A DNA stretch of 64,000 bases from Fidelibacterota bacterium (lineage in GTDB: Bacteria; Fidelibacterota; UBA2242), in the NCBI GenBank assembly GCA_016783665.1, contig JADHWC010000003.1, forward strand, positions 1,959 to 65,958, given 5' to 3'. Under the pieces are notes generated by a model. That model searched no databases. It saw nothing but the letters and a program-made list of their open reading frames with translations, and was not told the DNA's origin. Of this stretch, positions 8,215-23,007 are shown piece after piece (position 1 is the first letter of the stretch; each line of letters begins with the position of its first letter). The position numbers were made by a program, and so were the translations under genes.

Positions 8215-10089
8215 TTATTTTGTCGCTTCTTCCATTATTTCATTCAAGCGCTGGACGAATTCCGTCGGATTTGTCAAATTGCCATCAATTAACATCGCTG
8301 ATTCATATAGCTGCAGAATTGACTTTCTCAGAAGCGGATCCTTGCTGTCGCCTATATTCAACCGGGACAAATTTTTAATTAAATGATGGACTGGATTTAT
8401 TTCAAGAATCTTTTTCCGGGGTATAACTTCCTGATTCATGATTTTCATCATTCTTTCCATTTGCGGATCCAAGCCATCTTTCCCGACGACCAAAGTCACA
8501 GGTGAATTTACCAGGCGTTTTGAGACTGTCACATCCTCTACTTTATCGCCAAGAGTTTCCTTAAATACCGAAATCAGTGAGTTTGTCATTGTCTCGTTTA
8601 GCGAATCAGCTTCTTCACTGTCTTTATCCTTTTTCTCATCATCCAGCGTGATATCCGCTTTATCGATGGATTTTAAGGGTTTTTTATCATACTCGTTTAT
8701 TGATGGAGTGACAAAAACGTCCACCGGATCAGTCATTAACAATACTTCGATATCATTTTTCCTGAAATATTCAAGATTAGGATTTCTTTCCACAATATCC
8801 CGGTCCTCGCCTGAAAGATAATAAATCTCTCTCTGCTTTTTCTTCATTCGTGTGATATAATCGTCCAGTGATACCAATTCCCCTTTTGGTTTTGCCGTCG
8901 ATTCAAAACGAAGAAGTTTGATAATTTTATCACGGTTTCCAAAGTTACTATTAACACCTGTTTTGAATAGCATACCAAAATTCTTATAGAACTTTTCAAA
9001 TTTGCCGATATCATTTTTTGACCAATCTTCAAGCATATTGATAATTCTGGTGGTTAAAATTGTTTTGATTTTAGCCATAACCGGACTGTGCTGTGTGACT
9101 TCACGAGAGATATTTAATGGTAAATCTTCCGTATCAACAACACCACGAACAAATGTTAAATATTCCGGTAATAGATCTTTAGCATCGTCCTGAATAAAAA
9201 TACGATTTGAATAGAGATGAAGTCCTTTATCTTCAAGATCATAAAAAAGATTCATTGGAGCTTTTGGCGGTACAAACAATAAAGCCTTAAAGTTAACCGC
9301 GCCTTCGAGAGATAGATGCAGATGACCAAGCGGAGCTTCAAAATCATTAGCGACAAACTTATAAAACTCGATCAATTCATCCTCTTTTAATTCATCTTTT
9401 GACCGGCGCCATAAAGCATCAACAGTATTCGCTTTCTCTTTGCCTATTTCAATCGGGAAATCGACAAAGTTAGAATATTTTTTAATAGTCGATTTAACGC
9501 GATAATCTTCACTAAAATCTTTATGTTCATCCTTTAAACGGAAACTGATTGATGTACCCCGTTTCTTACGGTCAATTTCCTCTATTGTAAATGAACCTTG
9601 TCCGTTTGACGTCCAGCGATACCCTTTTGACCCGGGATTAGCGTGACGGGTTTCTATGACTACCTCGTCAGTTACCATAAAAACAGAATAAAATCCAACG
9701 CCAAATTGACCGATTAAATCTCCCTCAGGAACTTTCCCATTTTTCTGTATCTCTTCCAAAAACTTCAACGTACCGGAATTTGCCACCGTACCGATGTTCT
9801 TGATCAGATCTTCTTCGGTCATTCCAATACCCGAATCTTCTATCGAAAATAACTGCTTTTTAGTATCCAAATTTATCGATATTTTCAGATCAGCATCAGG
9901 ATCAGTGATTTCCTGATTCGTTATCTGTAAAAAACGTACTTTATTCAAGGCATCGGAGGCATTGGAGATTAATTCTCTTAGAAATACTTCCGGATGAGTA
10001 TAAAGGGAATGAACAATCAGATGAAGCAGTTGAGTTAATTCTGCTTTAAACTTATAGGTTTTTTTTGATTTAGTCGAATTTTTAGCCAT
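8215..10089 (-). CDS. htpG: Molecular chaperone HtpG (Hsp90)
   Basis: 624 aa with the GHKL ATPase motif LRELISNASDAL near the N-terminus and a typical Hsp90 middle and C-terminal domain. Confidence 0.95.
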   Translation of the reverse strand: MAKNSTKSKKTYKFKAELTQLLHLIVHSLYTHPEVFLRELISNASDALNKVRFLQITNQEITDPDADLKISINLDTKKQLFSIEDSGIGMTEEDLIKNIGTVANSGTLKFLEEIQKNGKVPEGDLIGQFGVGFYSVFMVTDEVVIETRHANPGSKGYRWTSNGQGSFTIEEIDRKKRGTSISFRLKDEHKDFSEDYRVKSTIKKYSNFVDFPIEIGKEKANTVDALWRRSKDELKEDELIEFYKFVANDFEAPLGHLHLSLEGAVNFKALLFVPPKAPMNLFYDLEDKGLHLYSNRIFIQDDAKDLLPEYLTFVRGVVDTEDLPLNISREVTQHSPVMAKIKTILTTRIINMLEDWSKNDIGKFEKFYKNFGMLFKTGVNSNFGNRDKIIKLLRFESTAKPKGELVSLDDYITRMKKKQREIYYLSGEDRDIVERNPNLEYFRKNDIEVLLMTDPVDVFVTPSINEYDKKPLKSIDKADITLDDEKKDKDSEEADSLNETMTNSLISVFKETLGDKVEDVTVSKRLVNSPVTLVVGKDGLDPQMERMMKIMNQEVIPRKKILEINPVHHLIKNLSRLNIGDSKDPLLRKSILQLYESAMLIDGNLTNPTEFVQRLNEIMEEATK

Positions 10090-10221
10090 TGGATAATTCC
10101 TTATATAATTTGCATAATTATTGAAAAGCGCATTGAGATGTTACGAATATCATGCCAAAATTTTTAAACGTCATATTGTCAGATATTATTTCCGGAATAC
10201 CATAAAACCTAACCTGGATAA

Positions 10222-10287
10222 ACCCCCGAAGGGGCAGGCCCGCCTGCTCCCGAACCGCTACGGCGGAGAGGGTGGGCAGGCAGAGCC
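10222..10287. repeat. GC-rich palindromic element E1 (REP-like)
   Basis: A ~65 bp segment of >65% GC in ~35% GC surroundings (cccccgaaggggcaggcccgcctgctcccgaaccgctacggcggagagggtgggcagg). It shares gctcccgaac...gagaggg(t/c)gggcagg with the element inside hsdS (19419-19497, opposite strand). Confidence 0.7.
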
Positions 10288-10340
10288 AAAAAGGAAAAGA
10301 GTTAAAAGTGAAAAATGAACAGGCTGTTCCAGTCCAGGCG

Positions 10341-10490
10341 ATTCTGGATACTGGATTCTGGATACTGGATTCTGGATTCTGGATACTGGATTCTAGATAC
10401 TGGATTCTGGATACTGGGTACTGGATTCTGGATACTGGGTACTGGATTCTGGATACTGGGTACTGGATTCTGGATACTGGGTACTGGATA
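10341..10490. repeat. Tandem heptanucleotide array (~21 x [a/t]ctgg[a/g]t) with a 21-bp higher-order unit actgggtactggattctggat x4
   Basis: Direct reading shows attctggatactggattctggat... ending in four perfect 21-mers, in the divergent region between htpG and the receiver/hydrogenase operon. The 79-aa ORF listed here is its translation. Confidence 0.9.
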
Positions 10491-10798
10491 AGAAAAAAAA
10501 CAAGAATATGATTAGTAAGGGACTAATTGTTCACGAAATACGCTATAAATTGTAAATCTTTTGGAGTTTTATGGCAAATATTGTATGCTCCTTTAGATTT
10601 CATTTATTATATTACGGCGCTTTGATGGTTTATTGAAAACACTATAGTACGTATCAGATATCTAACAGCTAAGCGTATATGATACAGTTGCAATAAATTC
10701 TCTGTAAATAAGCCCCTTTTATCAGGCTATTTTAAATAGTATGACCGGGGATAATCGTACATAAAAAATATTAGATCACATTTTAGGAGGACTGTTTA

Positions 10799-11170
10799 AT
10801 GGCGAAAATATTAATAGTCGATGATGACGAAGACTTTGTATCGGCTGTCAATCTCTTACTGAAAAGCAACGGTTTTGATGTTGCAATTGCAAATTCCCGC
10901 CAGGAAGGAATGGAAAAATTTGATGAAGATAATCCGGACCTGGTCTTATTGGACGTGATGATGGATGAACCGGATGACGGATTTGTAATGGCTCAATCGC
11001 TCAAGAAAAAAGCGAAGGACATCCCGGTTCTGATGTTAACAAATGTCGGACAGGTTACAGGTCTGGATTTTGACAAAGACAGTGAAATGGTTCCCGTCGA
11101 TGATTTTGAGCAAAAACCAATTATGCCAAATATATTACTTGATAAAATAAACCAACTTCTTGGCAAATAA
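10799..11170 (+). CDS. Stand-alone response-regulator receiver domain protein (CheY-like)
   Basis: 123 aa: ILIVDDDEDF...LVLLDVMMD (acidic pocket and phospho-acceptor Asp) with AGGAGG RBS; sits immediately upstream of the hydrogenase genes. Confidence 0.8.
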   Translation: MAKILIVDDDEDFVSAVNLLLKSNGFDVAIANSRQEGMEKFDEDNPDLVLLDVMMDEPDDGFVMAQSLKKKAKDIPVLMLTNVGQVTGLDFDKDSEMVPVDDFEQKPIMPNILLDKINQLLGK

Positions 11171-12919: not shown

Positions 12920-14831
12920 ATTATTTGAAGAAACAAACCGGTCCCCTAAAAGTACAAAAACGGCTTCCGTAAAAATACCGGTAAATACTGAGGCGATTGG
13001 TGCGCTTATTAAAGTCACTATCGACGATAAAGAGATCAGAGTTCCAATGGGAACCACAATTCTCGAAGCTGCCGGAAAGCTCGGGATAAACATTCCTACA
13101 TTATGCTATCATGAAGACCTGTGTATCAGCGGTGTCTGTCGTATATGTGTTGTAGAGATTGAAGGATATAGAACGCTTCAGGCATCTTGCGCTTTTACGA
13201 TCACTCAAGCGATTAATGTTCATACTCACACCCGTAAAGTCCGCCAGGCGCGCCGTCATATACTTGATCTTCTGCTTTCGAATCATTATGGCGAATGCTA
13301 CACTTGTGTTCGGAATAACAATTGCGAACTACAGAAATTAGCCAATGAATACGGCGTTGATTTTTACCGCTTCGGACATGTTGAAAAACCGACTTACGGT
13401 CGTGATGAATCTTCCTATGCAATTGTCCGCGATATGGATAAATGTATCATGTGCCGGCGTTGCGTACGCACCTGTATCGATCTGCAGGAAGTCGGCGTCT
13501 ATGAAGCTATGAATAAAGGCGCTGAAACCCATATCGGAACATTTATGGATAATCCCATGGCGCAGTTGATCTGCATCAATTGCGGTCAATGTATCAACCG
13601 CTGCCCAACCGGCGCATTACATGCTAACGATCCGTCAGACACAATCTGGGCGGCAATCGACGATCCGACAAAACATGTTGTAATCCAGACCGCTCCGGCC
13701 CCGCGTTCGGCGATTGGAGAATGCTTCGGACTGGAACCCGGCAAACCACTTACATTCGAAATGAATACAGCGATGCGCTATTGTGGCTTTGATAAGGTAT
13801 TTGACACAAACTTTACGGCAGACCTTACAATTATTGAAGAAGGCACTGAACTGATTCTGCGACTGTATAATGCGCTTGTGAAAAAGGAACAGCAAGCCCT
13901 GCCGCAGTTCACATCCTGTTCGCCGGGCTGGGTAAAATATATCGAACATTTTAATCCGGAAATGTTAGCACATGTCTCCTCTGTTAAAAGTCCGCAGCAG
14001 ATGTTCGGTGCGGTTATTAAAACCTATTATGCCGGACTCAATAATATCGATCCGGCTGATATTGTCACGGTGGCTTTAATGCCCTGCACGGCAAAGAAAT
14101 TCGAATGCAATCGTCCTGAAATGAACGATTCCGGTTTTAAGGATATTGATTACGGTTTAACCACACGCGAACTGGCGCAGATGTTTAAGGAAACCGGCAT
14201 AGACCTGGTAAATATGAAAAAATCGGATTTCGACGATCCTTTTGGAACTGCAACGGGTTCCGGCGTTATTTTTGGCGCAACCGGCGGTGTGATGGAATCC
14301 GCTCTCCGCTCGGTATATGAATTCATTTCCGGCGAAAAGATCGAGAATCTGTTCGATCATGCCAGGATTGTTCCGGTGCGTGGATTTGAAGGCGTTCGCT
14401 ATGTGGAATTGCCCATTGCCAAAGTCGGACCCGTGCCGGACATCCTCAAACATCTTGTTCCCGATTGGAACTGGCTGAAGGGCGTCACATTGAAAGTTGC
14501 GGTATGTCACGGTACTGCAAACGCCAAAAAAATTCTCGATGATATAAAAGCCGGCGGCAGAATGAGTGAATGCCATTTTATCGAATTCATGGCTTGCCCG
14601 GGCGGATGTCTCGGCGGCGGCGGTATGCCGATCCCGACCGATGAAAAGATCCGCGCTGCCCGCGCTAAAGCAATTTATGCCGAAGATGAATCCTCCGAAG
14701 TCCGGAAATCCTATGAGAATCCCGCTATTATAAGACTCTACTCTGAATTTCTCAGCGACGGACCATGTGGACATAAAAGCCATAAATTGCTGCATACCGG
14801 TTACACGCCGCGAGGGAAAAAACTGGTTTAA
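12903..14831 (+). CDS. hydA: [FeFe] hydrogenase catalytic subunit HydA (M3-type, with N-terminal [2Fe-2S] and accessory [4Fe-4S] domains)
   Basis: H-cluster motifs L2 MPCTAKKFE and L3 EFMACPGGCLGGGG are present; L1 reads TSCSPGW rather than the canonical TSCCPxW; N-terminal CYHEDLCISGVCRIC [2Fe-2S] and CxxCxxCxxxCP ferredoxin motifs; overlaps the upstream gene by 17 nt. Confidence 0.9.
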   Translation: MQEKDKLFEETNRSPKSTKTASVKIPVNTEAIGALIKVTIDDKEIRVPMGTTILEAAGKLGINIPTLCYHEDLCISGVCRICVVEIEGYRTLQASCAFTITQAINVHTHTRKVRQARRHILDLLLSNHYGECYTCVRNNNCELQKLANEYGVDFYRFGHVEKPTYGRDESSYAIVRDMDKCIMCRRCVRTCIDLQEVGVYEAMNKGAETHIGTFMDNPMAQLICINCGQCINRCPTGALHANDPSDTIWAAIDDPTKHVVIQTAPAPRSAIGECFGLEPGKPLTFEMNTAMRYCGFDKVFDTNFTADLTIIEEGTELILRLYNALVKKEQQALPQFTSCSPGWVKYIEHFNPEMLAHVSSVKSPQQMFGAVIKTYYAGLNNIDPADIVTVALMPCTAKKFECNRPEMNDSGFKDIDYGLTTRELAQMFKETGIDLVNMKKSDFDDPFGTATGSGVIFGATGGVMESALRSVYEFISGEKIENLFDHARIVPVRGFEGVRYVELPIAKVGPVPDILKHLVPDWNWLKGVTLKVAVCHGTANAKKILDDIKAGGRMSECHFIEFMACPGGCLGGGGMPIPTDEKIRAARAKAIYAEDESSEVRKSYENPAIIRLYSEFLSDGPCGHKSHKLLHTGYTPRGKKLV

Positions 14832-14855
14832 ATTATCTTTGCGATAAAATGAATA

Positions 14856-14883
14856 AGGCTATCCGATTGGGTAGCCTTTTTTC
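14856..14883 (+). terminator. Rho-independent terminator after hydA
   Basis: ggctatcc-gatt-gggtagcc hairpin followed by TTTTTT. Confidence 0.75.
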
Positions 14884-14939
14884 AATTTCATCTCATTCAC
14901 CTCGTTCCCAAATTTAATTTGGGAATGAGTCGAAATCCA

Positions 14940-17888
14940 TTACACTTTCTCTGAATAATCCTCAAACAACACTCTTTTCACATACTGATTCCGTTTGGGC
15001 TCAGTGAGCTTTTTGTAAAAACCCAAACTATCATCCACCAATCCTTGTAGTAATTTGTCAAATACCTTGTTGAACATAAATCTTTTATTGGATTCTGTGT
15101 TATCACCAAGATGAACTTTCCGTAGTTCCTTATCCTCATTCAACCGGGTTTGTATTTTTTCCAAATTCACTTTGTCATCGTCGTTCAAATCACTACCAAA
15201 GTTCTCATTTAGGACTTGTATGATATGGGATAGTAAATCTTTGAGTTCTTCGGGTGGAGATTCACCCACCCCGGTTGATATAGGTTGTAACTCCCCATCC
15301 TCATACATCAGGGAAATCGGATAGCTATGTTTCTTCTCAATCCTGAAATACTCCAAATCCACATAGGAAAAAACATCTGCCAATCTATCTCTTGTTCTCC
15401 TGGGGAGTTTCCTGTTCAGGAATCGCAGGAAGATATACAGTTTTTCAAGCTTTATATCTTTGAAAGTGATGATTTGAGAAATGTATCCGTACAGTCTAAT
15501 AAAACTCTGAATCTGATGACGGAAATCTTCCCTTTCTTCTTCCTCCAACCTCTTCCAATCTTCTACCACATAGTCCAAAATGGGTTGTAGTTCTTCATCG
15601 GGTATTCTGTCATCGTAGAACTTCTCTATCAACTCATTTACTGTTTCATCCCGGAATAGATTGTATTTCTTTATTTCTTGTTCAATGGAATACAGTTTGT
15701 TGGGGTCGGTTTCCTCTACAAGTAGAGTCCCTTGATAGTATGGTTGGAATGAATCCTGAATGATTTCCGGTTTATTCACAAAGTCCAATACAAGAGTGTC
15801 AGTCTTACCTGTCATCGTTCTGTTCAACCTGCTCAAAGTCTGAACGCACTGGAGTCCTTGAAGTCGTTTATCTACATACATTGTATGAAGTAACGGTTCG
15901 TCAAATCCTGTTTGAAACTTGTTACAAACAATCAGGATTCTATACTGCGGGTCTTTGAAGTTCTCCTGGGTCAATCTTTCAGGGAAACCGTTCAATGATG
16001 GCTCTGTATATTCCTTGTGAGTATCCTTATCATACACCGTTCCACTAAATCCAACCAGGACTTTGAATGGAAATTCCATTTCTTTTAACTGCTTATCAAA
16101 TTCAAGTTTGTATTTGACACAGTGAAGTCTTGAGCGGGTCACCACCATTCCGCGACTCTTGCCGCTTATTTTTAGGGAGCTATGGTTCAGGAAGTGTTCT
16201 AAAATGATTTTGGTTTTTTCAGAGATGGTATGCGGATGAATATCTACATATTTCACCAACATCTTTTTTACACGACTTTCGGGCAGTTCCTTATCCTCCT
16301 CAATCTTTTTATTTAGACGGAAATATCGCTCATAAGTGGTGTAATTCTGTAAAACATCAAGAGTAAAATTTTCTGAAATACTCTGTCTCATTGAATACAA
16401 ATCAAAAGAAACGAACTGTCCGTCCTCGTTCTTTCTGCCAAAGATTTCAAATGTTTTATTCTTCGGTGTTCCACTAAAACCGAAATAGGAAATATGAGCT
16501 TGTCTTCCCCTTGAAATAATTTCATCTAATATCAGTTTATCCACTTCGGTAAGGTCATCCCAATCCTCACCTTCCTGGAACTCATCCAATACAGATTTGG
16601 ACAGAGATTTTTTCAGGTGTTTGGATGTTTCTCCACTTTGAGATGAATGAACTTCATCGATGATAACGCCGAACTTCTTACTTTTCAGTCTGGATATGGA
16701 ATCTGATATAACAGGGAATTTCTGAACTGTGGTAATGATGATGGATTTCCCCAATTCAAGGTATTCTTTCAACTGTTGGGAATTGACATCCACAGGATTC
16801 ACTACACCTTTGGTTTGTTCTAACTGTTTAACGGTATTCCGTATTTGTTTGTCTAAAACCTTTCTGTCTGTAACTACAATTACAGAATCAAACATACCTT
16901 CCGTGTCTGCGGGAGTTCTGTAAAGAGAAGTCAATAGATGAGACAACCAACCAATAGATAAGGATTTACCACTTCCTGTGCTGTGTTGTATCAGATAATT
17001 ATTTCCAACACCTTCTTCAACTACAGATTTCTTCAAGCTCCTGATGACATTCAATTGATGGAATCGGGGGAAAATCAGAAGTTCTTTTTTCTTATCAACC
17101 ACTTTCCCAAGCTTTGAATCATACACCTTCTCTTTTTCTTCACGGATATGAACAAAGTTCTCTATCAAATCCAACATACTGTTGGGATGTAGAATATCCT
17201 CCCACAGATAATGGGTTTTATGTCCTTTAGGATTGACAGGATTTTCAATGTCTTTGTTGTAAGGAAGAAACCGTGTCTTACCACCCATCAACCGTGTCGT
17301 CATTGACACTTTTTCATTCCCTACAGAAAAATACACAAGATTCCGTTTGAATCTGAACAACGGTTCTTTGGGATCGCGGTCATACTTCCATTGTTTCTCA
17401 CCGTCGATATGGTTCTGTCCCGTGAGTGTGTTTTTCAGTTCCATCATCACGATTGGGATTCCATCGATGAAGATTCCCATATCAATAGAGTTCTCATTTT
17501 TCAGAGAGTATTTCAGTTGTCGGATGACGGTAAAACGATTCTGTTTGTATAAATCTTTATGTTCAGGATTCAGCCCGCTCCTGGGCTGGAAATATACCAG
17601 GTGAAAATCACAGCCCCTGTCCTTGACGCCATTCCGTAAGACATCGATAACCCCTCTGTTTTCAATTTCTGTGGATACTCGTTTTATCAGTTTGATTTCT
17701 GTTTCAGAACCATATTGTAATTCAAGTTTTTCAAGGGTTTTAGCCTGGGTTTCCTGAATGAATTCAATCAGTTGGGCAGGAATAAGACAGAGAGTTTTAT
17801 CATATATGGATGGGTCTGATGAAGAATAACCACTACTGACAAGATGTTCTTCAATGTGTTCTTCAAAGTCTTGTTCAAGGTAATTCAT
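14940..17888 (-). CDS. hsdR: Type I restriction enzyme R subunit HsdR
   Basis: 982 aa with an N-terminal PD-(D/E)xK nuclease motif (IDGIPIVMMELK), SF2 helicase motif I (HSTGSGKS) and motif II (DEVH); lies in an hsdM/hsdS context. Confidence 0.85.
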   Translation of the reverse strand: MNYLEQDFEEHIEEHLVSSGYSSSDPSIYDKTLCLIPAQLIEFIQETQAKTLEKLELQYGSETEIKLIKRVSTEIENRGVIDVLRNGVKDRGCDFHLVYFQPRSGLNPEHKDLYKQNRFTVIRQLKYSLKNENSIDMGIFIDGIPIVMMELKNTLTGQNHIDGEKQWKYDRDPKEPLFRFKRNLVYFSVGNEKVSMTTRLMGGKTRFLPYNKDIENPVNPKGHKTHYLWEDILHPNSMLDLIENFVHIREEKEKVYDSKLGKVVDKKKELLIFPRFHQLNVIRSLKKSVVEEGVGNNYLIQHSTGSGKSLSIGWLSHLLTSLYRTPADTEGMFDSVIVVTDRKVLDKQIRNTVKQLEQTKGVVNPVDVNSQQLKEYLELGKSIIITTVQKFPVISDSISRLKSKKFGVIIDEVHSSQSGETSKHLKKSLSKSVLDEFQEGEDWDDLTEVDKLILDEIISRGRQAHISYFGFSGTPKNKTFEIFGRKNEDGQFVSFDLYSMRQSISENFTLDVLQNYTTYERYFRLNKKIEEDKELPESRVKKMLVKYVDIHPHTISEKTKIILEHFLNHSSLKISGKSRGMVVTRSRLHCVKYKLEFDKQLKEMEFPFKVLVGFSGTVYDKDTHKEYTEPSLNGFPERLTQENFKDPQYRILIVCNKFQTGFDEPLLHTMYVDKRLQGLQCVQTLSRLNRTMTGKTDTLVLDFVNKPEIIQDSFQPYYQGTLLVEETDPNKLYSIEQEIKKYNLFRDETVNELIEKFYDDRIPDEELQPILDYVVEDWKRLEEEEREDFRHQIQSFIRLYGYISQIITFKDIKLEKLYIFLRFLNRKLPRRTRDRLADVFSYVDLEYFRIEKKHSYPISLMYEDGELQPISTGVGESPPEELKDLLSHIIQVLNENFGSDLNDDDKVNLEKIQTRLNEDKELRKVHLGDNTESNKRFMFNKVFDKLLQGLVDDSLGFYKKLTEPKRNQYVKRVLFEDYSEKV

Positions 17889-18089
17889 TTTTCCAATTCT
17901 TTTCTAAAGTTTGTCTAATTTAGTAAAGAAACTGCGTGATTCAAGTGATAATACATAATTCGAATAACTCCTTGTTATAGCGATAGATAGATGTATTCAT
18001 ATCCTGCATTTCAATCTTATTTGCTATCAATTCAACACCCTTCTTTACTAAAACTTTACTAATTCTTTACTAAAATCCATTTTCTACCA

Positions 18090-18665
18090 CGTAACCCACG
18101 AATTTATTCGTGGGTGATACAATAATGTCTAAACCAAACCGATTCATCGGTTTATCTCCAGATTATGCAACTTCATGAATTGTTCATATTCCTCTTTGAA
18201 GGTCATTTTACGATGATGCTCTTCTTGCGTTCGGATGTATCGTTCGACTTTTCCCACATCAGATTCACTAACAGAAAACGCTCCATAGCCAACCTGCCAA
18301 CTGAATTTTAATTGTACTAAATCCTCCTGATTAATCCAATGAGACGTTTCCCCTTTGATAGATTTCATTACTTGAGCAATTGAGACCTCTCTGGAAAGTA
18401 AAAATAATTGATGCACATGGTCACTTGTCCCATTGATAATTAGAACCTTACAATCCATTTCCTCCAATTTCTCGTATAAATGGGTATGTACATCTTTACG
18501 GATAGCATTAACAAGCAATGGTCTCCGATCTTTAGTTCCAAAGATGCCGTGTATCCATAATTTTGTTAGTGAGTGACTCATAACTTTCCTTTGTATAAAC
18601 CGTTAAAACGGTTTCCTTTTTGTTGTTGTTCATGCTCCCACGATTGAAATCGTGGGTTTCTAACA
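18090..18665 (-). mobile_element. IS200/IS605-family (possibly RAYT-like) element inserted between hsdR and hsdS
   Basis: A Y1/HuH tnpA gene is flanked on each side by a pair of hairpins in mirror arrangement. Left side: cccacgaatttattcgtggg then aaccgattcatcggtt; right side: aaccgttaaaacggtt then cccacgattgaaatcgtggg. Confidence 0.7.
18144..18581 (-). CDS. tnpA: IS200/IS605-family tyrosine (HuH, Y1) transposase TnpA
   Basis: 145 aa with HuH motif (SDHVHQLF) and a C-terminal catalytic Tyr region (ERYIRTQ); N-terminal WIHGIFGTKDRRPLL resembles IS200 TnpA and RAYT. Confidence 0.8.
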   Translation of the reverse strand: MSHSLTKLWIHGIFGTKDRRPLLVNAIRKDVHTHLYEKLEEMDCKVLIINGTSDHVHQLFLLSREVSIAQVMKSIKGETSHWINQEDLVQLKFSWQVGYGAFSVSESDVGKVERYIRTQEEHHRKMTFKEEYEQFMKLHNLEINR

Positions 18666-18721
18666 ATTGTTTATCATTCAGTCCTCGATTGTGATTGTGG
18701 ATTGCTTCGTATGGTTCGCAT

Positions 18722-20158
18722 TCATCTTGATTGTGTCTCTCCTTCAACCAAGACGGTTGAGTTATACCCCCTCACATCAATTTTCCCCGTCACCACTTCG
18801 GAAATAAGTGATTGACGGTATTCTTTTAAAAGTTCAATTCGTTGGGTTTCTTTTTCAATGGTAGTGTCAATCTTTTGGGTTTGTTCATCAAGATATTCAA
18901 CGATTTGGTGTTGTTCAGTATTGGTTGGTTTTGGATAAACCATATTTGAATATTTTTCACCATTCACATTTTCAATAGTTGAAGTGATTGTGTTTAGACG
19001 AATCCAATATAAATAAAAATCAGTTTTCGTTGTGTAAAAGACAAATTTTGAAGAAAAATAATCCCCAAAATTGAATCTTACTAAATAACCACCTGAAGAA
19101 TACATACCATCTTGAAGATGTAAATATGATTTGCCTACAGTATGTCCACTTCTACATAACAACAAATCATATTTATCCAATAGAAACTCTACATCCACAT
19201 CTGATTCAATTAAATATTTTCCATTATCGGGATTCAATTCTCCACAATCATCAAGGTCTGTAATCCTTATAAACCTTACACCATTTTCAGTATATCTGTC
19301 ACTACTAATATTGAGACCATAACGAACTGGTATTAGTGTATCGTATTTAAGTTTTGAAATAGTCCAACCACTCGGAATCTCCCCAATCCACTTAACACCA
19401 CTATCTTTCATCTCCACATTCCTGCCCGCCCTCTCGTCCGTTCGGGAGCCAGCCTGCTCACGGAGTGCTGGCAGGCAGGCGGGGGGGTTCAGCCCTTTGG
19501 TCACACAATGATTGATAAGGGCAGTTCGTTTTTCTTTCAGGAGTTCGATCTTCTTTTCTGTTTTTTCAATCAGTTCGTCAATCTTTTGGGTTTTGTGGTC
19601 AAGGAAGGAGACGATTTGTATTTGTTCTCTTTTTGGAGGAATCAAGAATTGAAAAGTAGAAATCTCTTCTTGACTCAACATTGGGATTGTTGTAATTGAA
19701 CCAATCAAATTAATTTGAGTAAAAATGTGATTTGATTGTAAATAGTACCAAAGAAATATTGGATTTTCTTTTATTTGATTAACCAAAACAAGACTCGGAT
19801 TGATTGTCATTTCACCATAATCTTCATCAATGAATACTACTTTCCCTAAACTTCCCCTTTGACTAATAATCATATCACCTTTTTTCACCATAATCTCGGG
19901 GGACTCATAATATTTATCCCAACTCAAAAAGTCAGGATTTGATAGGTCTATTTTTTGGGATGAGTTGATATGTTTCCCTCCAAGAACTAAACATCCTTCC
20001 CCTTCATCTACAAAATCAGTTTTCTTATATCCTTTGTATCCAATCCTACCCTGTAAATTTACAATATATCCAAGTTTTTTTCTTGCCCACCCACTCGGTA
20101 TCTCTCCAATCCACTCAACTTCACTATCTTTATATGACGGATACGGTCTCATTATCAA
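18722..20158 (-). CDS. hsdS: Type I restriction-modification specificity subunit HsdS (two target-recognition domains)
   Basis: 478 aa with duplicated EVEWIGEIPSGW / GVKWIGEIPSGW TRD starts, a central coiled-coil conserved region, and C-terminal ...LISEVVTGKIDVR. Confidence 0.85.
   Translation of the reverse strand: MIMRPYPSYKDSEVEWIGEIPSGWARKKLGYIVNLQGRIGYKGYKKTDFVDEGEGCLVLGGKHINSSQKIDLSNPDFLSWDKYYESPEIMVKKGDMIISQRGSLGKVVFIDEDYGEMTINPSLVLVNQIKENPIFLWYYLQSNHIFTQINLIGSITTIPMLSQEEISTFQFLIPPKREQIQIVSFLDHKTQKIDELIEKTEKKIELLKEKRTALINHCVTKGLNPPACLPALREQAGSRTDERAGRNVEMKDSGVKWIGEIPSGWTISKLKYDTLIPVRYGLNISSDRYTENGVRFIRITDLDDCGELNPDNGKYLIESDVDVEFLLDKYDLLLCRSGHTVGKSYLHLQDGMYSSGGYLVRFNFGDYFSSKFVFYTTKTDFYLYWIRLNTITSTIENVNGEKYSNMVYPKPTNTEQHQIVEYLDEQTQKIDTTIEKETQRIELLKEYRQSLISEVVTGKIDVRGYNSTVLVEGETQSR
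19419..19497. repeat. GC-rich palindromic element E2 inserted in-frame in the hsdS inter-TRD linker
   Basis: A ~78 bp stretch of ~70% GC inside a ~33% GC gene. It translates to ...PPACLPALREQAGSRTDERAGRNV... exactly between the central conserved helix (TKGLNP) and TRD2 (EMKDSGVKWIGEIPSGW). Its reverse complement is similar to E1 at 10222-10287. Confidence 0.7.
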
Positions 20159-20239
20159 TTCTTTTTACATAGGTTAATAACGCAAAAAATTACACATACT
20201 TTTATATCTATAGGTAAATAATCCAATTTTCTACCCATA

Positions 20240-21304
20240 CTATTCTTCGCCTGCAAATAGTGTAAATAATGGTAAGTTGACATAATAGTTACTATTTTTG
20301 ATTTTCATTTTTTTTACAAAGCCATCTTCTGATAACTGATTGAGATAACCGGATGCCGTTTTTCTTGACACCCTTAATTCATGTTCAACAAACTCTATTT
20401 TTGTATAAGGATGTTTAAACAAGTTGTTTATCAAATCCTGGCTATAAAATTTATATTGATTTCTTATTCGATGTTTATAATCCATCATCAACCGCTTAAT
20501 CTCAGAAATAATTATGACGGTGTGTTGCGATGTTTCTGCAATGCCATTTAACATCCAGATAATCCATGATTCCCAATCATTCTCCGTGCGAACACCTTGC
20601 AACAATTGATAATAATCCGTTTTGTTCTCAATAATGTATTTGCTGAGATAAAGAACCGGAATATCAAGTAGTTTTTTTTGTAGTAGATACAGAATATTGA
20701 TAATTCGCCCGGTCCTGCCATTACCATCATAAAAAGGATGAATACTTTCAAACTGATAGTGAATGATTGCCATTTTAATCAACGGATCAATATCGTGCAG
20801 TGAATCTTCATTGATATAATTTTCAAGATTGCTCATTAACGCAACAATTTCATTTGCATCCTGTGGCGGTTTGTAGATGGTTTCTCCAGCGCTGTTTTGC
20901 AATACCGTGCCAGGTATTCTTCGAAAACCTTGCTTTATCGGCTCAATTATTTTTTGAATTTCCAAAATATAATTATTTGTCAAAAGATGGTGCTTTTTGA
21001 CCAGTTTAAATCCTTTTTTCAAAGCATTTGCATAATTTTTCACCTCTTTTGCCGCTAGATTATTGAAACTATCGTCCGCATCCGCACGGTAAAGATCATC
21101 TTGAGTAGTTATTATATTTTCAATTGCAGAACTATCTTTTGCTTCTTGTAAAGCAAGTGTATTTATAAGAATTTCTTCATTAGGAATTGTTTTGGATTCT
21201 CCTTTCAACTCCCCCAACGCCCGACTGGCTTTGTTTAAATTTTCATAAATATCCGATGTTTTGACATTTATATCCAGAGGCAACTTTTGCAATGATATAT
21301 TCAT
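20240..21304 (-). CDS. fic: Fic/DOC family protein (adenylyltransferase-type Fic)
   Basis: 354 aa with Fic motif HPFYDGNGRTGR; overlaps the hsdM stop by 4 nt and lies between hsdM and hsdS. Confidence 0.85.
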   Translation of the reverse strand: MNISLQKLPLDINVKTSDIYENLNKASRALGELKGESKTIPNEEILINTLALQEAKDSSAIENIITTQDDLYRADADDSFNNLAAKEVKNYANALKKGFKLVKKHHLLTNNYILEIQKIIEPIKQGFRRIPGTVLQNSAGETIYKPPQDANEIVALMSNLENYINEDSLHDIDPLIKMAIIHYQFESIHPFYDGNGRTGRIINILYLLQKKLLDIPVLYLSKYIIENKTDYYQLLQGVRTENDWESWIIWMLNGIAETSQHTVIIISEIKRLMMDYKHRIRNQYKFYSQDLINNLFKHPYTKIEFVEHELRVSRKTASGYLNQLSEDGFVKKMKIKNSNYYVNLPLFTLFAGEE

Positions 21305-23007
21305 AATATCTCCTTCATCAATCCTTCTGTTTCCTCCTCCAATTTCAACAAATCCCGGGTGATTTCTTCCAATGACCGAAGTGGTTTATATTTGTAAAAA
21401 TACTTGGTGAAGTTGATTTCGTAGCCCACTTTGTCTTTGTCTCTATCCATCCAGGAACCCTTCAAATGGGGTATAACTTCCCGTTGGTAGTATTCCTCAA
21501 TATCATCCAACAAGGGAACACGTTCATAATCTCTTTTTGATGTGTCAGGTTTCGGATTTCCCTGCTTATCCGTTACTATTTCACCGTTTTCCATCATCGG
21601 TTGTTCTATGGTGACTTTGGTATAACCGAAAAACTCATTGGGATAAATTTTACTGTATTCACTCTCCGCAAAGTTCAGATAGTGTTCCAATAAGGTATTT
21701 CGGTTTTCCTCGGTGATTTCTTTCCGTTTATTCCCCAGTGATTTCTTCATCTGTTTGAAGAAAGCAGAACCGTTGATGAGTTGGACTTTACCTTTTCGTC
21801 TTTCTGATTTCCTGTTATTTACAATCCATATATAAGTGGAAATACCTGTGTTGAAGAACAGTTGGTCGGGAAGTGATACAATACACTCCAGCCAATCATT
21901 TTCAATAATCCATTTACGGATTTCAGATTCACCGCTGCCACTGTCCCCCGTGAATAATGGAGAACCGTTAAACACTATCCCAATCCGGCTTCTTTTTGAT
22001 TCCATCTTGGAAATCATATGTTGAAGGAATAACAAAGAACCATCAGAAGTTCGTGGTGTTCCGACGGAGAATCTTCCATAGGGATTCTGTCCCTCATTTT
22101 CAATGAACTCTTTTTCAGATTTCCAGCTAACACCAAATGGGGGATTTGTAATCATATAGTCATATTTTTTTCCTTGAAAATTGTCCTCTGATAGAGATGA
22201 ACCCAATCGGATGTTGTCAGGGTCTTCATCGGTAATCAACATATCGGACTTACAGATTGAATAGGTTTGGGGATTCAGTTCTTGTCCTAACAGACGAAGT
22301 TTCACTTTGTCGTTGATATTCTGATGGATATATTCTTTTCCGATAGTCAACATTCCGCCAGTTCCACAACAAGGGTCAAAAATGCTTCTGACTTTGCCTT
22401 CACCTTGTAAATCATCTTTATCCTCTGAAAAGACAAGGGAAACCAACAGACGAACTACATCTCTTGGGGTATAGTGTTCTCCACTTGTTTCATTGGACAT
22501 TTCAGAGAACTTCCGTAACAATTCTTCAAAGATAAGTCCCATATCACGGTTGGAAATCTTATCAGGGTGTAAATCTATTTCGGTGAGTTTGTCTATAAGA
22601 ATAAACAGACGGTTATTCTTGTTCAGTTTCTCAACCGGTTTCTCCAACTGAAAATTCTCAATAATCTCGACAACATTGTCACTGAATCCACCCAGGTAAT
22701 TCTGAAAGTTCATATATACATTCTGTGGGTCGGATTTCAGTCTTTTCAAATCATACTTGGAATGATTGAAAAAGCTGGTGTTGATTCGGTTTAGAATGAT
22801 TGGGGTGGGGTCATCTACTTTGGTTCTGTATTCTTCGTAGATGTTGAACACATCGTCTTTGTGAGGTTCTAAAACACAATCCAATCTCCGTAGAACGGTG
22901 AACGGTAGAATCACATCGCCGTATTCGTGTGGTTTGAATAATCCCCGAAGGACATCATCACAGACATTCCAGATGAAGGATGATATTTGGTTATAGTTAT
23001 TTGACAT
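21301..23007 (-). CDS. hsdM: Type I restriction-modification N6-adenine DNA methyltransferase HsdM
   Basis: 568 aa with SAM-binding FDPCCGTGGML and catalytic NPPFG (ITNPPFGVSW). Confidence 0.9.
   Translation of the reverse strand: MSNNYNQISSFIWNVCDDVLRGLFKPHEYGDVILPFTVLRRLDCVLEPHKDDVFNIYEEYRTKVDDPTPIILNRINTSFFNHSKYDLKRLKSDPQNVYMNFQNYLGGFSDNVVEIIENFQLEKPVEKLNKNNRLFILIDKLTEIDLHPDKISNRDMGLIFEELLRKFSEMSNETSGEHYTPRDVVRLLVSLVFSEDKDDLQGEGKVRSIFDPCCGTGGMLTIGKEYIHQNINDKVKLRLLGQELNPQTYSICKSDMLITDEDPDNIRLGSSLSEDNFQGKKYDYMITNPPFGVSWKSEKEFIENEGQNPYGRFSVGTPRTSDGSLLFLQHMISKMESKRSRIGIVFNGSPLFTGDSGSGESEIRKWIIENDWLECIVSLPDQLFFNTGISTYIWIVNNRKSERRKGKVQLINGSAFFKQMKKSLGNKRKEITEENRNTLLEHYLNFAESEYSKIYPNEFFGYTKVTIEQPMMENGEIVTDKQGNPKPDTSKRDYERVPLLDDIEEYYQREVIPHLKGSWMDRDKDKVGYEINFTKYFYKYKPLRSLEEITRDLLKLEEETEGLMKEIL

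Follow-up and report, generated by a model that had tools for sequence, protein, structure and literature searches.

A lineage-conserved serine at a cubane-ligand position of a predicted NADH-linked [FeFe] hydrogenase

We describe here an [FeFe] hydrogenase subunit, HydA, from a Marinimicrobia/Fidelibacterota genome, in which the cubane-ligating Cys of the L1 motif is replaced by Ser (S340). In our assessment it is likely, with a probability of about 0.8, that HydA provides the catalytic subunit for a functional cytoplasmic [FeFe] hydrogenase of the NADH-linked, two-subunit HydAB type, in which the cubane is held by C395, C565 and C569 together with S340. Judged from the sequences compared, S340 is a lineage-conserved natural variant and neither a sequencing error nor, in all likelihood, the mark of a dead enzyme. 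Ser ligation of the cubane is already known, and HydA takes an unremarkable place in a Ser-type lineage described before.

The in-frame translation bears out the original prediction that L1 of HydA reads TSCSPGW and not TSCCPxW, as the codons aca tcc tgt tcg ccg ggc tgg encode T337-S-C339-S340-P-G-W343 in the frame of the 642-aa open reading frame (Table 1). The roles that it gave to the two L1 Cys, proton relay and then cubane ligand, are correct according to alignment to structures and the literature, and this alignment places the replacement at the cubane ligand C300 of CpI (C. pasteurianum) rather than at a non-conserved position. In HMMER alignments to solved structures, C339 corresponds to the proton-relay residue C299 of CpI and S340 to C300, with no gaps inside L1 and with identical flanking residues, and S340 pairs with Ser301 in Acetobacterium woodii HydA1 and with Cys299 in the T. 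kivui enzyme. A misaligned L1 motif could be excluded, as the alignment counts match the literature numbering (CpI C299, C300, C355, M497, C499 and C503; A. woodii Ser301; T. kivui Cys299).

L2 and L3 are intact, as had also been predicted, and match the consensus patterns MPCxxKxxE and ExMxCxxGCxxGGG. By alignment, M393, C395 and K398 of L2 correspond to M353, the ligand C355 and K358 of CpI, while M563, C565 and C569 of L3 correspond to M497, the ligand C499 and C503, which forms the bridge to the [2Fe] subsite. The canonical proton pathway, the roles of whose residues are taken from the literature (CpI C299, E279, S319, E282 and R286), is kept in HydA together with M353, M497 and K358. HydA therefore resembles CpI and the HydA1 proteins of T. 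kivui and T. maritima in fold, L2, L3, proton pathway and these three residues, but differs from them at the CpI-300 position, where they have Cys (TSCCP). It departs from the strict L1 motif TSCCPxW with its four Cys ligands and keeps the remaining three, C395, C565 and C569. Since the active HydA1 of A. woodii departs from it as well, strict TSCCPxW can evidently not be demanded of members of [FeFe] hydrogenase group A.

Table 1. Features of the hydrogenase operon (positions in the window, i.e. the whole 64-kb stretch of DNA analysed)
Feature	Position	Strand	Basis
CheY-like response regulator consisting of a receiver domain alone, 123 aa; opens the operon	10799..11170	+	Pfam Response_reg 5.4e-18
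HydB-like diaphorase subunit, 578 aa	11183..12919	+	Pfam, alignment to T. maritima HydB, motifs
HydA catalytic subunit, 642 aa	12903..14831	+	Pfam, NCBIfam, PDB matches
IIEEGTELILR, proton-transfer-pathway residues E313, E316, R320 (= CpI E279, E282, R286)	13830..13862	+	Alignment
L1 motif TSCSPGW	13911..13931	+	Translation, HMMER alignment; invariant in 119/119 aligned family members
C339, proton-relay Cys	13917-13919	+	
S340 (tcg), in place of cubane-ligating Cys	13920-13922	+	
S359 (= CpI S319), in HVSSVK	13971-14000	+	Alignment
L2 motif MPCTAKKFE	14079..14105	+	Alignment; Cys 100% conserved
L3 motif EFMACPGGCLGGGG	14583..14624	+	Alignment; both Cys 100% conserved
Intrinsic-terminator-like hairpin, 10-bp stem, 5 GC pairs, then TTTTTCAATTT	14855..14888	+	Consensus match only

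HydA is built, in this order, from a NuoG-like F-domain with [2Fe-2S] and [4Fe-4S] clusters, the H-domain and a fused small-subunit domain, and matches the Pfam families Fer2_4, NADH-G_4Fe-4S_3, Fer4_Nqo3, Fe_hyd_lg_C (1.8e-84; PF02906, 283.7 bits) and Fe_hyd_SSU (PF02256, 79.5 bits). It scores above the cut-offs of TIGR02512 (465.9 bits against 405.95) and of NCBIfam NF040763 (781.4 bits against 765, a full-length match to model positions 1-571), the latter named 'NADH-dependent [FeFe] hydrogenase, group A6', which is also the name that close homologues of HydA bear at NCBI. Its top PDB match is 7q4v_A (E=5e-167), and the protein is 100% identical to that of a public Candidatus Marinimicrobia MAG. 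The gene overlaps hydB by 17 nt. In HydB, a NuoE-like [2Fe-2S] domain at the N-terminus is joined in one chain to a NuoF-like FMN/NADH/[4Fe-4S] module (Pfam 2Fe-2S_thioredx, residues 13-157; Complex1_51K, 206-375; SLBB; NADH_4Fe-4S, 479-559), and the motifs CRTISC/CLGMC, GRGGAGFPT, GEPGTFKD, GAGAYVCGEE, GGASG and CGQCTPC...SKCGLG were all located in it; this NuoE plus NuoF arrangement lies upstream of hydA in 70/70 loci with room for it. The receiver protein at the head of the operon has the residues D8/D9, D52, T81 and K106 and lacks an output domain, and in 55 of the 68 related loci with room for it a homologous gene immediately precedes hydB. The terminator-like hairpin, which starts 24 nt past the hydA stop codon, putatively marks the end of the operon. 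No HydE/F/G maturase genes were found within the window, and the maturation of HydAB would presumably depend on HydE/F/G genes in other parts of the genome.

The HydAB of Syntrophus aciditrophicus has been described as a dimeric, non-bifurcating NADH-dependent [FeFe] hydrogenase with a gamma-beta fusion, and the passages of that study used here give as signatures of a non-bifurcating HydB a Thr or Ser at T. maritima HydB position 232, a Lys, Ser or Ala at 234, a Tyr for Phe near the FMN and the lack of GGPSG (Losey et al. 2020, PMC7311640). When aligned with T. maritima HydB, the HydB studied here has GEPGTFKD against GDPGAFMN, that is Thr at 232 and Lys at 234, and GGASG against GGPSG. It also has GAGAYVCGEE against GAGAFVCGEE, a signature that we matched by motif and by its description as 'near the FMN binding site', the published number 367 being off from the T. 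maritima HydB residue count. At the level of its sequence, HydB thus carries the published signatures of the non-bifurcating, Syntrophus-type HydAB, signatures that were derived from few characterised enzymes. The likeness to the S. aciditrophicus enzyme, as read from HydB, extends to the two-gene system and to the NuoE-NuoF fused beta subunit of about 580 aa, whereas the conserved upstream receiver gene is a difference in so far as those passages make no mention of it (PMC7311640). From the electron-bifurcating HydABC (group A3) our system departs in the fusion of NuoE, in GGASG for GGPSG and in the lack of a C-terminal 2x[4Fe-4S] ferredoxin domain, no Fer4 domain being detected by Pfam in HydB, which ends 19 aa past its NADH_4Fe-4S domain. 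HydAB would accordingly be expected to use NADH alone, without ferredoxin.

The closest structural precedent for S340 is HydA1 of A. woodii, part of the electron-bifurcating HydABC(D) complex (PDB 7Q4V, 7Q4W and 8A5E), in which Ser301 was modelled as a ligand of the H-cluster [4Fe-4S] from cryo-EM data of moderate resolution and in which the Ser-containing H-cluster is assembled, active and of normal FTIR signature (Katsyv et al. 2023). The two proteins share an identical L1 within an ungapped stretch (ITSCSPGWIK against FTSCSPGWVK) as well as the M3-type architecture of NuoG-like F-domain, H-domain and fused small-subunit domain. They differ in that the A. woodii complex is bifurcating and has separate HydB and HydC subunits, while the partner here is a NuoE-NuoF fusion, and in that the C-terminal FeS domains of A. 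woodii HydB, the ferredoxin site according to Katsyv et al. (2023), are missing from our HydB. Compared with A. woodii HydA1, the HydA described here is also extended by about 35 aa at the N-terminus, contains about 25 inserted aa at roughly residues 495-530 and carries five additional invariant Cys. Going by this homologue of about 50% identity, an assembled and active H-cluster would be compatible with Ser at the S340 position, and by the same analogy we infer that the O-gamma of Ser340 may bind iron in HydA.

The survey of close homologues found the same Ser throughout: it occupies the position of the second L1 Cys in 120/120 of the closest protein homologues (74-100% identity) and in 80/80 genome loci from at least 10 phyla, where it is encoded by TCG, TCA, TCT, TCC or AGC. 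The sampled family includes Marinimicrobia, Planctomycetota, Hydrogenedentota, Acidobacteriota, Kiritimatiellia, Ignavibacteriota and others, and all other catalytic residues and FeS ligands are invariant across it. The sole exception seen in the sampled group A6-type family is one more distant, Cys-type relative with 63% identity. Because P0124, a family member with TSCCPSW, retains the other family features, Cys and Ser appear to be interchangeable at the CpI-300 position. Outside the bacteria, a eukaryotic transcript representative of the Nyctotherus-type HydA-NuoE-NuoF fusion (P0156, 1192 aa) likewise reads TSCSPGW and is among the closer relatives of the HydA H-domain, although its domains lie on one chain and in reverse order, starting with HydA. 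With respect to the history of the exchange, Fitch parsimony of the Ser/Cys state on NJ trees required 9-14 changes over 100 bootstraps, where shuffled labels had a median of 19. These 9-14 changes, to be read with the poor deep resolution of the NJ trees at 0.6-0.9 substitutions per site, speak against one common origin of the Ser type, and several evolutionary switches between Ser and Cys are no more than suggested by the pattern.

If S340 made no bond to iron, the fourth [4Fe-4S] ligand would have to be another residue or a water or hydroxide. As a ligand of FeS clusters Ser is inferior to Cys, which counts for such a shift, and candidates are at hand in five extra H-domain Cys (C274, C294, C402, C557 and C622) that are at least 99% conserved in the family and missing from A. 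woodii HydA1 and most other HydA. We nevertheless regard the shift as improbable. None of the five occurs in every Ser-type protein: A. woodii HydA1, P0122 and others have the Ser yet lack these Cys, and column statistics over 104 H-domains revealed no compensating Cys common to all Ser-type proteins. Conversely, the Cys-type P0124 retains four of the five, so that they do not co-vary with Ser. Moreover, in the linear alignment the five Cys sit 7-60 residues from any ligand, and the A. woodii model puts Ser301 itself at the ligand site.

It is more improbable still that HydA is a catalytically inactive or a sensory/regulatory homologue, with the lost cubane ligand and the co-transcribed receiver protein as marks of an H2 sensor or of a protein with a non-catalytic function. 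The operon does begin with a conserved response regulator that has a receiver and nothing else, and copies with TSCSPGW were treated by Di Rienzi et al. (2013) as lying off the motifs required for function. However, the deviating Melainabacteria copies of that study also lack an L3 Cys that is intact in HydA, and the Ser-type enzyme of A. woodii is a highly active bidirectional hydrogenase. The parallel with sensory groups drawn in the original prediction proved wrong in kind: sensory [FeFe] hydrogenases of group C/D (e.g. TmHydS and TamHydS) share a non-canonical L1 with HydA, but they keep the four Cys ligands and have C299 replaced by Ala, Pro or Ser along with changes in M353 and M497, all three non-coordinating, and in the proton pathway, whereas HydA alters the cubane ligand and keeps the equivalents of all of these. 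Nor does HydA have the other hallmarks of that group, PAS or C-terminal cluster domains, as Pfam detected no PAS or other signalling domain in it, and its partner is a complete NADH-oxidising module. An error of sequencing or assembly in the contig (tcg for tgc), in favour of which a two-base transposition would give back Cys, is negligible as an explanation, since the Ser recurs in 200 sequences that were assembled independently and stem from various samples and phyla, since TCA, TCT, TCC and AGC cannot arise from a tcg/tgc swap, and since the same motif is found in the solved enzyme of a cultured organism, A. woodii. Among the readings that the original prediction had offered, the Ser-ligated H-cluster variant is thus the one supported, with Ser301 of A. 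woodii as its precedent, while the ligand shift, the inactivated enzyme and the two-nucleotide swap are not.

With HydAB taken as a working NADH-linked hydrogenase with a Ser/Cys3-ligated cubane, NADH would hand its electrons to the FMN of the NuoE-NuoF fusion, from where the FeS chain of HydA would carry them to the cubane and the di-iron subsite. Protons would reach this subsite by the canonical pathway of R320, E316, S359, E313 and C339 and would there be reduced to H2, or the reaction would run in reverse. Here we speculate, though we consider it unlikely, that Ser ligation may be a recurrently selected tuning, in which oxygen ligation shifts the potential of [4Fe-4S]H or the catalytic bias to suit NAD(P)H-linked electron input. 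If true, this would explain the fixation of Ser in the multi-phylum HydAB family and in the NuoE/NuoF-fused eukaryotic enzymes as well as the repeated switching between Ser and Cys. The Ser could then act together with the five extra invariant Cys, and the co-transcribed receiver protein might regulate the enzyme post-translationally.

Di Rienzi et al. (2013) had already noted TSCSPGW in genomes from metagenomes, and the Ser-for-Cys ligand of A. woodii HydA1 has been documented since 2023 (Katsyv et al. 2023). What the present analysis adds is the scope, namely the presence of Ser in every sampled member, bar the one Cys-type relative, of a widespread group A6 HydAB-type family. Screening of HytA/HydA with strict TSCCPxW, as described in Poudel et al. 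(2018), will systematically lose enzymes that probably evolve H2 and form a large class of wide ecological distribution, and the same loss will follow from calling TSCSPGW copies non-functional. In addition, the family offers natural Ser/Cys pairs, such as P0124 and its relatives, with which the tuning of the H-cluster by its fourth cubane ligand could be studied.

The original prediction that L1 of HydA reads TSCSPGW rather than TSCCPxW at 13911-13931, with L2 and L3 intact, proved accurate on translation of the window. A search of HydA against all PDB sequences yielded full-length alignments to [FeFe] hydrogenases, with A. woodii HydA1 (7q4v_A, E=5e-167) as the top structural relative and further matches to T. 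kivui HydA1 (8a6t_A, 9e-152), CpI (4xdc and others, about 5e-117) and T. maritima HydA (7p5h_A). The L1 region aligns with the solved enzymes without gaps and with identical flanks, and a residue count along the alignment, which also recovers the literature CpI numbers C355, M497, C499 and C503, equates C339 with CpI C299 and S340 with CpI C300. According to the literature, C299 is the proton-relay cysteine beside the azadithiolate amine, which leaves C300 as the cubane ligand; S340 replaces this residue, as predicted. The proton pathway (E313/E316/R320/S359, equivalent to CpI E279/E282/R286/S319) and the second sphere (M393/M563/K398, equivalent to CpI M353/M497/K358) are canonical in the alignment.

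Coordinates of the hydrogenase operon, HydA motifs and cysteines, and neighbouring genes
Feature	Position	Strand	Remark
htpG	8215-10089	-	divergent from receiver-hydB-hydA operon
Receiver-only response regulator, 123 aa	10799-11170	+	first gene of hydB-hydA operon
hydB, 578 aa	11183-12919	+	directly 5' of hydA, 17-nt overlap
hydA, 642 aa	12903-14831	+	ORF
C274	13722-13724	+	extra H-domain Cys
C294	13782-13784	+	extra H-domain Cys
L1 motif TSCSPGW	13911-13931	+	translation
C339 codon tgt	13917-13919	+	in L1
S340 codon tcg	13920-13922	+	in L1
L2 motif MPCTAKKFE	14079-14105	+	intact; translation
C402	14106-14108	+	extra H-domain Cys
C557	14571-14573	+	extra H-domain Cys
L3 motif EFMACPGGCLGGGG	14583-14624	+	intact; translation
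C622	14766-14768	+	extra H-domain Cys
Terminator-like hairpin	14855-14878		3' of hydA; consensus match
HsdR	14940-17888	-	
IS200/Y1-transposase-like gene	18144-18581		interrupts restriction-modification system
HsdS	18722-20158	-	
Fic-domain gene	20240-21304		interrupts restriction-modification system
HsdM	21301-23007	-	

The substitution is real and its explanation is mundane, namely an unusual ligand with published precedent. Opposite HydA L1, A. woodii HydA1 has ITSCSPGWIK, and our residue count places Ser301 of A. woodii and Cys299 of T. kivui at the S340 position, in agreement with Katsyv et al. A ligand of the S340 type already occurs in A. woodii HydA1, which is active and for which structural and spectroscopic precedent has been published, and TSCSPGW was noted in Melainabacteria hydrogenase genes already in 2013 (PMC3787301).

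A ligand-shifted H-cluster, one of the options initially raised, would differ from this reading, and no compensating cysteine common to Ser-type proteins was found: the only Cys columns universal across Ser- and Cys-type proteins are C339, C395, C565 and C569, and column statistics on the H-domain alignment gave no column that is Cys in all Ser-type yet not in Cys-type proteins. HydA does carry five extra H-domain cysteines (C274, C294, C402, C557, C622), at least 99% invariant in its family and absent from A. woodii HydA1, CpI, most other HydA and other Ser-type proteins, with T. kivui sharing only the C622 equivalent. Since they are missing in other Ser-type proteins and mostly kept in the Cys-type protein P0124, they do not track the serine; an extra metal site or disulfides are possible roles. 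The family also has an H-domain insertion of about 25 residues (…LPIAKVGPVPDILKHLVPDWNWLKGVT…; HydA about 495-530, window about 14385-14490), kept in P0122 and P0124, where A. woodii, T. kivui and CpI show a gap.

The suggested parallel with sensory hydrogenases is not apt. TmHydS-type sensors conserve the Cys ligands and alter C299, M353, M497 and the proton pathway (PMC10055695), whereas HydA shows the reverse pattern, and a Pfam domain search found no PAS or other signalling domain in it. Least tenable is a tcg/tgc swap from sequencing, which is excluded by the serine in all homologues and loci listed and by its varied codons.

HydA matches a public Candidatus Marinimicrobia MAG protein at 100% identity, and the homologue survey that had been proposed found TSCSP(G/A)W in 120/120 homologues listed (74-100% identity; NCBI, JGI, ENA and Logan assemblies). 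Across 119 aligned sequences, T337 to P341 and W343 never vary, and Gly occupies position 342 in 118 of them. A scan limited to a single genome for each species gave more than 580 relatives; the best 80 loci all read TSCSP(G/A)W in the correct frame, encoding Ser by TCG, TCA, TCT, TCC or AGC; they span Marinimicrobia/Fidelibacterota, Planctomycetota, Hydrogenedentota, Acidobacteriota, Kiritimatiellia, Armatimonadota, Thermoleophilia, Fibrobacteraceae, Melioribacter and others. Together these results show that Ser is a lineage trait under purifying selection.

Beyond the family, the 150 top-ranking representatives of 50%-identity clusters comprise about 24 with [TS]SCSP and intact L2 and L3 versus about 95 with [TS]SCCP. 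The Ser-type set includes A. woodii-sized proteins (575-595 aa), a Natronincola (Clostridia) protein named group A6, a bacterial 1104-aa fusion of an N-terminal NAD-dependent epimerase/dehydratase-like domain to HydA (P0127), and a single-chain HydA-NuoE-NuoF fusion of 1192 aa from an MMETSP eukaryotic transcript (P0156). On NJ trees of 104 H-domains (Ser/Cys column left out, 100 bootstraps) the character requires 9-14 changes versus a median of 19 with shuffled labels, which suggests, NJ being weak at these distances, that Ser-type proteins are partly clustered and form no single clean clade. More clear-cut is P0124: this metagenomic fragment of 457 aa has 69% H-domain identity to HydA, closer than Ser-type P0122, and reads TSCCPSW while keeping the family insertion and four of the five special cysteines; the L1 site has thus switched between Cys and Ser within or next to this family. 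Such switching is in keeping with the single mutation that separates Cys (TGY) from Ser (TCY or AGY) and with functional tolerance of both residues, and P0124 and its Ser-type relatives offer a natural Cys/Ser pair for experiments. The top match of the representative search, P0121 (4122 aa), is unusual and unrelated to the Ser finding: it has seven tandem H-domain-like repeats, with L2-like MPCTVKKTE and L3-like MMCEGGCMNG each seven times and no canonical L1 by the pattern used.

HydA has the M3 architecture (Fer2_4, NADH-G_4Fe-4S_3, Fer4_Nqo3, Fe_hyd_lg_C, Fe_hyd_SSU) and scores 781.4 bits against the curated cut-off of 765 for NCBIfam NF040763, 'NADH-dependent [FeFe] hydrogenase, group A6'. 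HydB fuses a NuoE-like [2Fe-2S] domain to a NuoF-like FMN/NADH/[4Fe-4S] module; domain search and alignment to T. maritima HydB revealed no C-terminal ferredoxin-like domain, the ferredoxin-reduction site according to Katsyv et al. The same architecture is given in Losey et al. 2020 (PMC7311640) for the Syntrophus aciditrophicus HydAB, described there as non-bifurcating and ferredoxin-independent, and alignment and motif location recovered the diagnostic HydB residues reported there: Thr and Lys at T. maritima positions 232/234 (GEPGTFKD, where T. maritima has GDPGAFMN), Tyr in GAGAYVCGEE where T. maritima has Phe, and GGASG replacing GGPSG. Losey et al. place the Phe/Tyr discriminator at T. 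maritima position 367, which is Val by our count along 7p5h_B, the Phe of GAGAFVCGEE being residue 312; positions 232, 234 and 427-431 agree exactly, and the slip at this one site lies either in the paper or in our count.

A NuoE-NuoF gene lies 5' of hydA in 70/70 related loci with room. The receiver protein lacks an output domain and has canonical D8/D9, D52, T81 and K106; its gene directly precedes hydB in 55 of 68 related loci with room, from many phyla, about 1.7-2.1 kb 5' of hydA in loci L001-L080, and no cognate histidine kinase adjoins it in the window. The 709-bp non-coding gap between htpG and this gene (10090-10798), long for a bacterial intergenic region, yielded only weak promoter-like matches. 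The neighbours are those of an ordinary chromosome (htpG, obg, dprA, a type I restriction-modification system, fusA, pgk, smc, groL), with no hydE, hydF or hydG in the 64-kb window; the restriction-modification system (14940-23007, minus strand) adjoins the operon downstream.

HydA belongs to a widespread Ser-type, NADH-linked HydAB family with putative S340-Fe ligation and putative NADH-only use. Its residual interest is modest and lies in the fixation of Ser throughout the family, in what appears to be repeated Cys/Ser switching, and in the five extra invariant cysteines and the conserved receiver gene; screens based on strict motifs would miss all such Ser-type enzymes.
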